IMG/VR virus record: IMGVR_UViG_3300023083_000005
Location: 1 to 56,731 of that record
Direction: 5' to 3' (one strand)
Length of the DNA: 56,731 nucleotides
From: a virus
Positions 2,244 to 44,502 of this stretch are shown one piece after another (position 1 is the first letter of the stretch; each line of letters opens with the position of its first letter). Made by a program: the position numbers and the translations under genes. Under the pieces are notes generated by a model. The model saw only the letters and a program-made list of their open reading frames with translations. It searched no databases and was not told the origin of the DNA.

Positions 2244-2558
2244 ATGAGTAAGTTCCGCATCATGTATGAAGTGGAGTCGTACGATATCAACTCCGCACTC
2301 AATCTAGCGCACACTCTGCTCTTCACGCAAGAGATTGACGCAGATAGTGTGAAGGTCGAGCCGGTCACCACCGACCCGGGTCGTAGTTTCGGTGACCCCG
2401 TAGTGGAAGCTTACAAGGGTAGCGCGACCGAGGCTAAAGTCAATGAGGCCGCTAAGCATCCAGAAACCCTTGTAGAGCGTCCCCAGCGCAGAATGGCAGA
2501 AGAGGAAGACAAGCCGCGATTCTTTGACAAGGTGCTTGGCTGGCTCGACAAGTCGTGA
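2244..2558 (+). CDS. hypothetical protein (104 aa)
   Basis: ORF track; followed by hairpin GGTGG-cgac-CCACC. Confidence 0.6.
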   Translation: MSKFRIMYEVESYDINSALNLAHTLLFTQEIDADSVKVEPVTTDPGRSFGDPVVEAYKGSATEAKVNEAAKHPETLVERPQRRMAEEEDKPRFFDKVLGWLDKS

Positions 2559-32255: not shown

Positions 32256-32326
32256 GTGGACTGGCGGGAATCGAACCCACGTCCCTGCCCGACTTAGGGC
32301 CGCTCTTCCGATTGAGCTACAGTCCG
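32256..32326 (-). pseudogene. tRNA-like element / degenerate tRNA (no canonical anticodon arm)
   Basis: Acceptor (6 bp + C1:A72 mismatch), D arm GCTC-AATCGGAA-GAGC and T arm GTGGG-TTCGATT-CCCGC fold normally. The 21-nt central segment GGCCCTAAGTCGGGCAGGGAC gives only 4-bp stems with 6- or 9-nt loops. Confidence 0.55.
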
Positions 32327-41227: not shown

Positions 41228-42628
41228 TCAAGCCGAGACTTTTTGGAGGATGCTCAGGCCCGAGCGAACGAATGCGAATCCACCCAGTACGTCCTTATCG
41301 AAATCTTCGCTCATTTCGGGAGCCTTGAGCCAGCTTGACAGCGAACCGTCAGCCAGAACCTCGCCCACGTCACGGAAGTGGTTGACCCACGTCGCCTCGC
41401 CGTCATCCACCAGACCCGCGCCGGTGTTGCTCATTTCGCCCCACCAGTGAAGCATAGCGGCCAGCCCCTGAGGTGTCGTCTGTCCCTGATAGTCACCATC
41501 GTGGTCGAGGACATAAAACCGGTCGTCAAACGAACCACCCATGACCATAGAAGCGGAATCCTCGTCCACGGTTGACCCGGGAACGTCAGTGCGCCAGTTG
41601 TTGTTCTCATCGAACCAACCGTCAGGATCGTCACCGTATCCGTCGTCACCGGTCATCCACGCCTCGGCCCATGCGCGCTCAGCATCGGTGCGCGGGCTTG
41701 CCCATCCACCAGACGCGGGGACTGTACCCTCAGCGGGCACCGTAGCGGGCAGGGCGGGCTGTTCGGGCGTGAAGCCAGTTGTGGTGCTTGCGGCTGGCAG
41801 AGCCTTCTGAGTAGGCGTGTGGCTCGTCGCAGAAGCCTTGACTGCCGTCGTGCTGGTCGCGTTTCCGTGACCGCCCGACGTGGCGTTGCGCCATGTGGGG
41901 TTGTACCGACGCGCAGCACGATCCCAGTCTAGGTCTTCGTGCTGGAATGCCTTGGCATTGGTAATGGTCAGGTAGTCGCCGTCTTGCAGGTCAGCGAACG
42001 GCTTGGGCCATGTACCGAACCAGCGGATGCCGACACGCTTGAGTGCCTTGGCGAGAATGCTGTCGGTCGATGCGAAGACGAAAGACCCATCCTCAAGGCG
42101 TGCGATAGACACGGGGGAGTGGTTCAGGCGCGACAGGTGAATGGTGTTACCCGTCTGGGTGTCGAACCATGCGAGGGCAGCGTCACCACCGATCAGCGAG
42201 AATCCTTCGGTGCCGTACTCGGACAGCATTTCAGCCGCAACCGACGAGTCAACCTCGGGCAGTTGACTGCCATTTGTCAGGATTGCCCGCACGCTGTCAT
42301 GATTGAACAGAACGCCGTTGTGTACCAGCGTGATTCGCTTGTCGATGCTCGGCAGCGGGTGGTTGTTGTCGTTCACCTCAACCGGGCCGTGGGTTGCGAA
42401 ACGGGTGTGCATGATCACGCTGTCAGCCTTGCGGGGCAGCCCCTTTAGCTCAAGCTGTGAGCCGGGTACAGCCGCCTTGAACATGCCGGTTGCGCCGTTT
42501 CGGGTGGCGTAGGCGTATCCGCTGGCATGGGTGCCCCGAACCTCGCCCTCACTCAGCAGTGCATTGGCCAGTTCGCGTGCGTTGATCTTGGAGCCTTCTG
42601 CAAGGCTGAATCCGGTGATTGAACAGAT
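41228..42628 (-). CDS. class-II (Ntn) glutamine amidotransferase domain protein with about 220-aa C-terminal extension; apparent ATC start
   Basis: Nucleophile context (I)CSITGF, then MHTRFATHG...NNHP, HNGVLFN, EVDSSV. The ORF-track ATG (42484) would delete the catalytic Cys. AAGGAG lies 6 nt upstream of ATC-TGT. Confidence 0.7.
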   Translation of the reverse strand: MCSITGFSLAEGSKINARELANALLSEGEVRGTHASGYAYATRNGATGMFKAAVPGSQLELKGLPRKADSVIMHTRFATHGPVEVNDNNHPLPSIDKRITLVHNGVLFNHDSVRAILTNGSQLPEVDSSVAAEMLSEYGTEGFSLIGGDAALAWFDTQTGNTIHLSRLNHSPVSIARLEDGSFVFASTDSILAKALKRVGIRWFGTWPKPFADLQDGDYLTITNAKAFQHEDLDWDRAARRYNPTWRNATSGGHGNATSTTAVKASATSHTPTQKALPAASTTTGFTPEQPALPATVPAEGTVPASGGWASPRTDAERAWAEAWMTGDDGYGDDPDGWFDENNNWRTDVPGSTVDEDSASMVMGGSFDDRFYVLDHDGDYQGQTTPQGLAAMLHWWGEMSNTGAGLVDDGEATWVNHFRDVGEVLADGSLSSWLKAPEMSEDFDKDVLGGFAFVRSGLSILQKVSA

Positions 42629-42767
42629 GATATTCTCCTTTGTTAGTTCTGAAAGTGTTAGTGGGGCGCAAGGTCGTATTCCCTTGCGCCCCCGGTGGGT
42701 GCGAGTCTGACTCGCAATTAGCTAGTCCATTGCTCCACTAGAACCACCTCTTGCTGCGAGCTTACCC

Positions 42768-44243
42768 CTAGACTTCGCCCCCGGCAAGTACCAGTTCGGA
42801 CATACGGGCCGAGAAGTTGATCGGCTCGTTCTTCGTGAACATGGCCTCAATGTCCTCGTCAGTGATCGTTGACATGGAATCGTCAACGGTTTCCTTGCCG
42901 TACTTTACGAACAGCTTGTGCAGGTCTTCGAACGAGTTGACCCGGTTCCACTCGGCTTGCTTGACGTTGGCGCGGGCAACGTTCACCAATTCGCGGCAGA
43001 TGTATGCCCACCGGATCAGGTATTCGTAGTCGTAGACCGGGCCCATTGCGCGGAACTCGACGGTACCGTGACGGTTCAGGGCGTTCAGGTTCAGCGAGAG
43101 GTAACGGTCACCGCGCGAAACGTCGTGCTTGGTGGCTGCCGTCTTGCTGGAACGCAGGGTGTCACGAACCGCACCGAGCGAGCGAGGCATGCAGTAGGTG
43201 CGAACCTCGCGCTGGTAGCTCGACGCCAGAAGCGGCTCAATGGCACTGTAGCCGTACGTGAGCGAGCCAAGCTGGCGCGGGGTGAGGTCGTCCACGTCTA
43301 CGTGCACGTGAATGCCGCTCGTGTCGTTCTGCGGCTGCGTGGACAGGTGGGCCGTCAGGCTTTCGAGTCCCTTGGAGTGGAACGAGTGAAGAATGGGCGA
43401 AACGAATTCGCGGCAGTCTGCACTGCGGTCGCCGTCTTCGTACGCACTGCGCAGCGAGCCGTCAGCACGGGAGTCCCAGCCAGCGGGCTTGACCGCGCCA
43501 CGTGCGCCACCGGTTTCTACCTCAATGCCCCAGTTGCGGGAGGAACGGAGGCCGTGAGGCGCAATGGCGAACTTCTCCACGATGCGCTCAACGTTCTCGC
43601 TCTTTTTGTCCATGAGCTTCGTGAAGAATCCGTTGAAGTCGCCGGTACCCGAACGGACAGCCTTGCGCTTCTCGGCTTCCCGTGCCGCGTCAGCGGTCTT
43701 GGAGGCGCGGCGCATGGCTTCGAGCAGTTCTTTCTTGTAAGTGTCTTGCATGGCAATCAGGTAGTACAGCGCGTCAGCCAGCCCAGAGGCCCGCACGCGC
43801 CCGTCAGAGCGCACTGGAACGGTGATCGCGTGGCGCTCCATCACGGAGGTGTGAATGGCTCCCTTGGCAGTCGACGGAACAAGGTGGGCACCCTGTTTGA
43901 TGTAGACGATCCACGGGATGATGCCGATGTTCAGTTCGGCCAGCGCTTCCTTGGGTGACATGTAGTTGTCAACCAGTTCGCTCATGTAGACGCCACCGCG
44001 ACCCAGTTCGAGGCTGAAAGTGCCGTCGTCGGCCTTGTTCACCTTGACCTCGTTGGCGAAGTTGTAGCGGTCGTAGAAGTTCATGGTGGCGATAAACGCC
44101 CGGTACGCGCGTTCGATCTTGCGGGCATCCTTGCCAAGCTGAATGCTGGTCTTGCTGTTGAGCAGCGCCTTGGTAATGCCCCCCTCGTATGCGACACGGG
44201 CGTGCGCTTCGACCAGATTCTGAATGTTGCTCTCGTGACTCAC
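42768..44243 (-). CDS. amidoligase (glutamine-synthetase-like, Amidoligase_2 family)
   Basis: WGIEVETGGARG, ADGSL, EFVSPIL, SGIHVHVD, GTVEFRAM; GTG 44243 preceded by AAGGAGG (the track N-terminal extension was rejected). Confidence 0.75.
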   Translation of the reverse strand: MSHESNIQNLVEAHARVAYEGGITKALLNSKTSIQLGKDARKIERAYRAFIATMNFYDRYNFANEVKVNKADDGTFSLELGRGGVYMSELVDNYMSPKEALAELNIGIIPWIVYIKQGAHLVPSTAKGAIHTSVMERHAITVPVRSDGRVRASGLADALYYLIAMQDTYKKELLEAMRRASKTADAAREAEKRKAVRSGTGDFNGFFTKLMDKKSENVERIVEKFAIAPHGLRSSRNWGIEVETGGARGAVKPAGWDSRADGSLRSAYEDGDRSADCREFVSPILHSFHSKGLESLTAHLSTQPQNDTSGIHVHVDVDDLTPRQLGSLTYGYSAIEPLLASSYQREVRTYCMPRSLGAVRDTLRSSKTAATKHDVSRGDRYLSLNLNALNRHGTVEFRAMGPVYDYEYLIRWAYICRELVNVARANVKQAEWNRVNSFEDLHKLFVKYGKETVDDSMSTITDEDIEAMFTKNEPINFSARMSELVLAGGEV

Positions 44244-44391
44244 TGATACCTCCTTGGTAGATGATGTTGATTGGCTCTGGTTAGAGCTTAGTGCAGTTAT
44301 GCCCCACTGCGCAAGAGAATCTTGCAAATCAAGGGAAGAAATTCCGAGCCGGACTGCGGTTGACGCAACCCTCTCGGGAGTCCAAGGTTCT

Positions 44392-44502
44392 CTAGGCATT
44401 GCCGAACCCGATGTAAGCGCAGATGATCGGCACACACAGGGTGAAGATAGCGGCAAGAATGCCGTCTACACTGGACAGTTCCTTTTTGGCGCGCTCAAGC
44501 AC
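44392..44502 (-). CDS. small membrane peptide (36 aa)
   Basis: AGGAGG + 5 nt + GTG; VLERAKKELSSVDGILAAIFTLCVPIICAYIGFGNA. Confidence 0.45.
   Translation of the reverse strand: MLERAKKELSSVDGILAAIFTLCVPIICAYIGFGNA

Follow-up and report, generated by a model that had tools for sequence, protein, structure and literature searches.

A viral class II glutamine amidotransferase gene with a probable AUC start codon

Where does translation of a glutamine amidotransferase begin when no canonical start codon stands in front of its catalytic Cys? The question is raised by a gene on the minus strand of the IMG/VR virus record IMGVR_UViG_3300023083_000005, all 56,731 nucleotides (nt) of which were analysed and are called the window below. 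The gene encodes a class II glutamine amidotransferase, that is, one of the N-terminal nucleophile (Ntn) type. A sequence-only reading of this DNA had pointed out that the frame can include its catalytic Cys only by starting at a non-canonical ATC codon, and had offered three explanations: rare initiation at ATC, possibly keeping enzyme levels low; a longer propeptide that is removed autocatalytically; or an inactivated enzyme. Comparison with related viral loci leads us to the view that the gene is intact and functional and that it probably initiates at AUC 42628..42626.

Start region and identity of the gene

The features on which the argument turns are these:

41228..42628, minus strand: class II (Ntn) glutamine amidotransferase gene of 466 codons, the ATC being codon 1, with the stop codon at 41230..41228
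42722..42724, minus strand: in-frame TAG closing the amidotransferase frame on its upstream side, by direct reading
42635..42640, minus strand: Shine-Dalgarno sequence AAGGAG, 6 nt ahead of ATC 42628..42626
42629..42631, minus strand: second ATC, one codon upstream of the proposed start and separated from the Shine-Dalgarno sequence by 3 nt; it probably belongs to the spacer
42626..42628, minus strand: proposed initiation codon ATC (AUC), adjoining the Cys codon and aligning with TTG of the closest relative (locus L001) and ATG of the next (L003)
42482..42484, minus strand: first canonical in-frame start, an ATG, used in the public gene call and rejected here as the true start
42768..44456, minus strand: upstream partner gene of the Amidoligase_2 family (Pfam PF12224 and PHROG amidoligase families), stop codon TAG at 42770..42768

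From the TAG to the Cys codon (TGT, 42625..42623) the minus strand holds 32 sense codons without a single ATG, GTG or TTG. Our re-reading of this region matched the earlier one codon for codon and revealed no canonical in-frame start. The leader ends with aag gag aat ATC ATC, followed by TGT TCA ATC ACC GGA TTC (C-S-I-T-G-F), and the AAGGAG previously placed 6 nt ahead of the ATC lies at 42640..42635, in agreement with that placement. Before ATC 42628, the calculated energy of pairing to the anti-Shine-Dalgarno sequence is -9.2 kcal/mol, which ranks among the strongest 5% of 1000 positions drawn at random from the window; it is -3.8 kcal/mol before ATG 42484 and -5.6 kcal/mol before ATT 42718. 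None of the open reading frames (ORFs) in the other frames stops at the start site. Coupling to the upstream ORF, or a frameshift, was considered and rejected for the window, where 139 nt, including a strong hairpin, lie between the end of the amidoligase gene and the start.

The peptide C-S-I-T-G-F had been taken for an Ntn nucleophile context, and domain searches bear this out. The protein consists of an N-terminal glutaminase domain of ~240 amino acids (aa) followed by a conserved C-terminal region of ~225 aa. It matches the Pfam families GATase_6 (4e-16; 59.7 bits, cut-off 27) and GATase_7 (7e-10) and PHROG 14519 ‘glutamine amidotransferase’ (3e-32), with residues 1-286 aligning to profile positions 1-285, and a profile built from 30 homologues finds GlmS, AsnB and PurF (PDB 1xff, 1ct9, 1ao0) through their glutaminase domains. 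Five residues, C2, R76, N104, G105 and D127, are invariant across the 30 aligned homologues and all present in the window protein; the last four we take to be equivalent to PurF Arg73, Asn101, Gly102 and Asp127. The likeness to GlmS, AsnB and PurF thus covers the Cys nucleophile directly after the start codon and the Arg, Asn-Gly and Asp positions. The differences are that the C-terminal ~225 aa of the phage protein match no known synthase domain and that the gene here belongs to a phage and forms a pair with an Amidoligase_2 gene. Since the invariant catalytic Cys must be residue 1, the start codon of this family can be read from the sequence alone.

The C-terminal half (41228..41900, minus strand) gave no Pfam match; it keeps the motifs FY..DHDGDY, WVNHF.D.G and SW across relatives.

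The codon before the catalytic cysteine in related loci

The closest relative, L001 (P0002, 83% identity), reads gggagatatat-TTG-TGC-AGC-ATT-ACA-GGA-TTC, so that a TTG, 6 nt after GGGAG, adjoins the Cys codon; this start was likewise missed by the public gene caller. The next relative, L003 (P0003, 66% identity), has gtat-ATG-TGT at the same codon. ATC 42628..42626 therefore occupies the orthologous start position. Internal peptide motifs led to a less biased set of 106 distinct related loci, in which the codon ahead of the Cys is ATG 104 times, TTG once and ATC once. Relatives were found by alignment-based scans, while an IMG/VR scan with a single protein query returned no matches. Among cultured phages we found no close DNA relatives, and protein matches there reach at most ~38% identity.

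The coding sequence itself is constrained from its first codons on. Between the window and L001, the ratio of nonsynonymous to synonymous substitution rates (dN/dS) is 0.12 (dS 1.3) over the 47 codons between the Cys and ATG 42484, 0.08 (dS 1.2) over codons 48-240, and 0.09 (dS 1.4) from codon 241 to the end. With L003 as outgroup, 15 unique amino-acid changes fall on the window lineage and 30 on that of L001. The window gene is thus under purifying selection and without relaxed constraint, and the suggestion of an inactivated enzyme is not supported, given both the low ratio in the N-terminal 47 codons and the smaller number of unique changes.

The same ratio indicates that the segment ahead of ATG 42484 is translated, which bears on the annotated version of the protein. 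It is conceivable that only the product of ATG 42484 is made, a truncated protein of 418 aa without the nucleophile and with some non-catalytic role. This is what the public gene call (P0001, without Cys1) proposes, and ATG 42484 is indeed the first canonical start and does remove the nucleophile, as had been noted, although the loss amounts to 47 residues, the Cys among them, rather than about 48. We regard this reading as extremely unlikely, however: besides the constraint on the 47 codons ahead of it, this ATG lacks a Shine-Dalgarno sequence, its Met is not conserved (L001 has Thr there), and the product would be deprived of Cys1 together with the first conserved segment aligning to GlmS.

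An ATC directly before the Cys codon (ATC-TGY), with an upstream in-frame stop and no canonical start, was found in eight other independent assemblies. Five of them (L132, L162, L173, L178 and L182) came from sequence scans and three (L312, L314 and L315) via database proteins with truncated N-termini. Each has a Shine-Dalgarno sequence shortly upstream, and the open frames span 320-470 codons. The junctions read as follows:

L132: ggaaagcagggcagactc-ATC-TGT; the next canonical start lies only 90 codons downstream
L162: gacgaaaggaacggagcc-ATC before the Cys codon
L173: TAA AGG AGG TGC CCC ATC TGT
L178: gggaaaggaggctactact-ATC before the Cys codon
L182: gggaggagggtagttat-ATC before the Cys codon
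L312: TAG GAG ACC ATC ATC TGT
L314: ATG TGA TGC TTT ATC TGT, at 2462..2479; a minimal start-stop ORF lies three codons ahead of the ATC
L315: TGA ATC ATC TGT; two codons in all between the stop and the Cys codon

In L315 both of the codons between stop and Cys are ATC, hence no start other than ATC is available there. Three further loci were read at this junction: L150 and L152 have ATC ATC TGY and L151 has ATC ATT TGC. In L150 an upstream ATG has been called as the start, but it overlaps a tRNA-Glu gene and the call is therefore spurious. L311 and L313 start with TTG. The protein-level matches and the Arthrobacter phages checked yielded no cultured phage that has an ATC start. As a separate observation on L314, removing the 12 nt ATGCTTTATCTG would give back ATG-TGT-GCA.

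These junctions also bear on the idea that translation starts further upstream, at ATT 42718..42716, ATA 42680..42678 or ATC 42631..42629, and that the resulting propeptide removes itself. Bacillus subtilis PurF has such a propeptide, of 11 residues; Ntn enzymes are capable of self-processing, the upstream frame is open for 32 codons, and the doubled ATC ATC TGY of 42631..42623 recurs in L150, L152, L312 and L315. The likeness to B. subtilis PurF and glutamate synthase would lie in an active enzyme that needs a free Cys1 made post-translationally; those proteins start canonically upstream and lose their propeptide, whereas here there is no canonical upstream start. Against a propeptide, the 32 upstream codons are not conserved as coding sequence: the frame is closed by a stop 7 codons ahead of the Cys in L001, and by stops 3-6 codons ahead of it in L315, L314, L312 and L173. 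In addition, the upstream stretch carries two hairpins, one of them of -24.5 kcal/mol; ATT 42718 has no Shine-Dalgarno sequence, and the first ATC is merely 3 nt from the one at 42640..42635. The start codon, finally, adjoins the Cys codon in 104 of the 106 distinct relatives. We consider such an upstream start, with a propeptide, very unlikely.

How the ATC genes relate to one another was assessed from the identities of their N-terminal domains with a clustering heuristic. The nearest neighbours of seven of them (the window, L132, L314, L315, L162, L178 and L182) are all ATG or TTG genes, which implies separate origins. A clade with 63-76% internal identity contains L150, L152 and L312 (all ATC), L151 (ATT) and L313 (TTG), and the nearest ATG gene to it shows 60% identity. 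L173 (ATC) pairs with L417 (ATT) at 65% identity, and seven ATT genes, which encode 262-aa proteins and have a AAGGAAGGTG-type ribosome-binding site, form one clade with 74-96% identity. By this heuristic there are ~16 separate ATC/ATT lineages. Clades that mix ATC and ATT at such identities indicate that these codons are kept through substantial divergence and interchange with each other.

Alternatively, the window might owe its ATC to faulty sequencing or assembly, or an original ATG or TTG might have mutated very recently, silencing the gene without leaving other traces as yet. The two closest relatives are canonical at this codon, the window protein is found on a single contig in the public collection, and a very recent event would be invisible to pairwise dN/dS. 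On the other side, two substitutions are needed to get from the TTG of the sister to ATC; the 466-codon gene is intact, keeps its Shine-Dalgarno sequence and has fewer unique changes than the sister; several clades hold ATC or ATT through 24-37% amino-acid divergence; and the recurrence of ATC at the same position, without an alternative start, in eight other independent assemblies argues against an error. We therefore find error or recent silencing unlikely. The sequence-only reading had suggested comparing this junction in homologous phage genes and had held that a canonical start there would imply an assembly error here. The comparison did find canonical starts (TTG in L001, ATG in L003), but the conclusion of an error does not follow, given the eight assemblies that share the ATC. 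Rare ATC initiation, the first of the explanations offered earlier, fits both the orthologous start position and these eight cases. We conclude that the ATC start is probably a real initiation mode overlooked by gene finders and not an error, as judged from comparison of sequences.

Probable initiation at AUC and the start-codon spectrum of the family

How initiation at AUC might proceed is suggested by work on other near-cognate codons. A survey of all 64 codons in E. coli found that AUC, AUU, AUA and CUG initiate at 1-2% of the AUG level, and a protein started at AUC carried an N-terminal Met by mass spectrometry (bioRxiv 10.1101/063800). In Enterococcus faecalis, a natural ATT start of ebpA attenuates expression (PMC4447247). 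Initiation factor IF3 selects against such near-cognate codons (PMC9723500). For the window gene, we infer decoding of AUC by the initiator tRNA, removal of the Met, and low expression that may itself be a selected property. The AAGGAG 6 nt upstream would position the ribosome, and the formylmethionine (fMet) initiator tRNA would pair with AUC with a mismatch at the third position, so that the product would begin with fMet-Cys. Deformylase and methionine aminopeptidase would then strip the Met and leave Cys1 free as the N-terminal nucleophile, as in the ATG-started relatives. With AUC at ~1-2% of AUG-level initiation in E. coli, translation of the amidotransferase is likely to be weak; it would be IF3-sensitive, and weak relative to that of the upstream amidoligase. 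ATC may plausibly keep enzyme levels low, as was suggested before.

Two E. coli genes, infC and pcnB, start at AUU. Together with ebpA they resemble the window gene in having a codon one base off AUG, a Shine-Dalgarno sequence ahead of it and no other start available, and the likeness may be expected to extend to Met supplied by the initiator tRNA, weak initiation and discrimination by IF3. They differ in that the gene here comes from a phage and has AUC, a codon with few documented natural cases of initiation in bacteria. A further difference is that, within this single enzyme family, ATC or ATT has come up in many independent lineages and is more frequent than GTG and TTG.

This last point comes from a scan of IMG/VR for the pattern [codon]-Cys-Gly-Ile-[Ala/Gly]-Gly-Phe, filtered with the hidden Markov model of the family and counted as distinct true amidotransferase starts. 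The codon before the Cys was distributed as follows:

ATG: at least 97
ATT: 15
ATC: 4
GTG: 2
TTG: 1
CTG: 0

GTG and TTG together are thus outnumbered by ATC and ATT. The 15 distinct viral ATT-Cys genes lie among loci L375-L448 (for example L404, L406, L408, L422, L445 and L448). The ATT pattern searched in bacterial genomes gave no amidotransferase start among the 121 matches listed. Annotated bacterial genes in general show the opposite spectrum, with 81.8% ATG, 13.8% GTG and 4.35% TTG (bioRxiv 10.1101/063800). Shine-Dalgarno pairing is somewhat stronger on average in the ATC/ATT genes than in the ATG genes of the family (mean -11.9 versus -9.9 kcal/mol; one-sided p = 0.02, n = 12 and 158).

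Several observations weigh against initiation at AUC, or against what we make of it. The case is built on comparative sequence evidence. The window sequence is a single contig without a near-identical relative, which makes a very recent mutation or an error conceivable, and the less biased family sample holds one ATC in 106 distinct loci. Because the IMG/VR scan gives no more than a minimum for ATG, the true share of ATC/ATT starts does not follow from it. The Shine-Dalgarno strength of the window is close to the family median and gives no sign of compensation for a poor codon. AUC is a very poor start in E. coli (bioRxiv 10.1101/063800), and the host here is presumably actinobacterial. ATT-TGY creates an out-of-frame TTG over the start, an awkward fit with simple weak initiation. 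The excess of ATC and ATT over GTG and TTG in the family is left without an explanation. Avoidance of GTG and TTG on account of an overlapping out-of-frame NTG was tried as one and fails, since ATT-TGY itself makes an out-of-frame TTG.

Signs of other ATC or ATT starts in this phage were sought across the genome by combining a Shine-Dalgarno sequence, any codon and a long open frame. The scan was uninformative because matches of the GGTGA type are common inside genes, and the amidotransferase was the sole clean case. One candidate, ATT 25669 on the plus strand, is preceded by GGAGG and lacks an upstream canonical start. We put it down to chance, since ATG 25720, 17 codons further on, overlaps the stop of the ORF before it.

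Non-canonical start codons are already a known kind. To our knowledge, there is hardly any documentation of AUC as a natural start codon in bacteria or phages. Our literature search found neither a paper linking amidotransferases to ATC/ATT starts nor a phage enzyme family in which ATC/ATT recurs, persists and outnumbers GTG/TTG. Standard gene finders and phage annotation rules admit ATG, GTG and TTG only. Public protein sets accordingly contain truncated versions without the nucleophile (P0001, P0108, P0189, P0036 and P0101) and one, P0065, that is wrongly extended and crosses a tRNA gene. With N-termini mis-called in either way, the enzymes would be judged inactive. The amidotransferase family offers a defined set of genes for asking how phages use near-cognate starts in enzyme dosage or timing, and is suited to measuring AUC/AUU initiation in Actinobacteria and other hosts.

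A tentative extension, which we hold to be possible but doubtful, is that ATC/ATT is a selected recurrent feature of viral Ntn amidotransferase genes and not tolerated noise. These codons would be favoured over GTG and TTG for very low, IF3-dependent and possibly infection-stage-dependent translation of an enzyme with harmful free glutaminase activity. If this were true, the family would form a natural sequence-anchored reporter, and AUC/AUU initiation in phages would be far commoner than annotation suggests.

The spacer, the gene pair and the phage context

Between the amidoligase stop and the proposed start, the following elements were delimited:

42757..42767, minus strand: conserved non-coding GGGGTAAGCTC, adjoining the amidoligase stop codon; L001 and L003 share it unchanged, and the window has a single copy
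42700..42716, minus strand: hairpin 1, UGCGAGU-cag-ACUCGCA, 7 bp, -8.2 kcal/mol; not conserved in L001 or L003
42663..42692, minus strand: hairpin 2, GGGGCGCAAGG-gaauacga-CCUUGCGCCCC, 11 bp, G+C-rich, -24.5 kcal/mol, 22 nt before the Shine-Dalgarno sequence

Both hairpins had been reported before. The first is present, in a register slightly different from the GCGAGTC-aga-CTCGC given for it; the second is present as well and has 11 bp instead of 10. Hairpin 2 has counterparts of other sequence at the same distance from the start in L001 (-28.5 kcal/mol) and L003 (-26.9 kcal/mol), with 12-14 bp, and is conserved by compensatory changes. In consensus folding of the three leaders the strong hairpin alone was convincingly common, a comparison of three sequences having little power. 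The stretch from -95 to -15 before the window start folds far better than shuffled sequences (z = -5.5; z = -2.4 for the whole 176-nt leader). Across 190 distinct relatives, the same region has a mean z of -1.76, with z < -2 in 38%, whatever the start codon. Since folding of the spacer is a family-wide property independent of the start codon, the hairpins are not tied to the ATC start.

Hairpin 2 is followed by ACTAACACTTTC, without a T/U run. A promoter and terminator scan called nothing in the leader, neither hairpin 2 nor a sigma-70 promoter, and the best Rfam hit over 42400..43000 was a eukaryotic snoRNA model on the other strand (E-value 0.098), not a meaningful match. Most likely, hairpin 2 is a terminator-like or RNA-stabilising, protective stem in the spacer, apart from the question of the start codon.

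The identity of GGGGTAAGCTC in the three genomes holds although dS exceeds 1 in the flanking genes. It includes TAAGCT, and 17 nt upstream of this, inside the amidoligase gene, stands TTGCCG (TTGTGG in L003; 42757..42790, minus strand). A possible reading is that these form a candidate -10 and a candidate -35 element, respectively, of a promoter for the amidotransferase gene.

In relatives the spacer is an insertion hot spot for tRNA genes, an endonuclease VII gene and small ORFs. Examples are tRNA-Glu(CTC) at 2459..2531 of L150, over which the public amidotransferase call extends, a tRNA at 1195..1277 of L151, and the endonuclease VII gene at 2246..2467 of L311.

The pair of amidoligase and amidotransferase genes is also found in L001, L132, L150, L311, L312 and L314 and in cultured Arthrobacter phages. 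Phages Laroye, Waltz, Kovu and Ottawa of Arthrobacter have the same two-gene order, with the amidoligase upstream, as do LUZ24-like Pseudomonas phages (gp19; PMC3517423). These cultured-phage pairs differ from that of the window in showing only ~30-36% identity, over the N-terminal half. In the cultured phages checked, the annotated starts coincide with the start of the alignment at the codon before the Cys and are taken to be canonical.

The source contig resembles a phage genome of ~57 kb, and that of the closest relative, L001, has 56 kb. L001 carries a weak WhiB-like match, which hints at an actinobacterial host.

The leader contains no tRNA. The three tRNAs of the window are Asn, Trp and one odd tRNA-like gene, and by eye none of them is initiator-like or has a GAU anticodon. 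The odd one is

32256..32326, minus strand: tRNA-like gene, Rfam tRNA 40.2 bits

ARAGORN reports it as ‘tRNA-???’ with a two-base anticodon, that is, a 6-nt anticodon loop, and it may be a degenerate or unusual phage tRNA.

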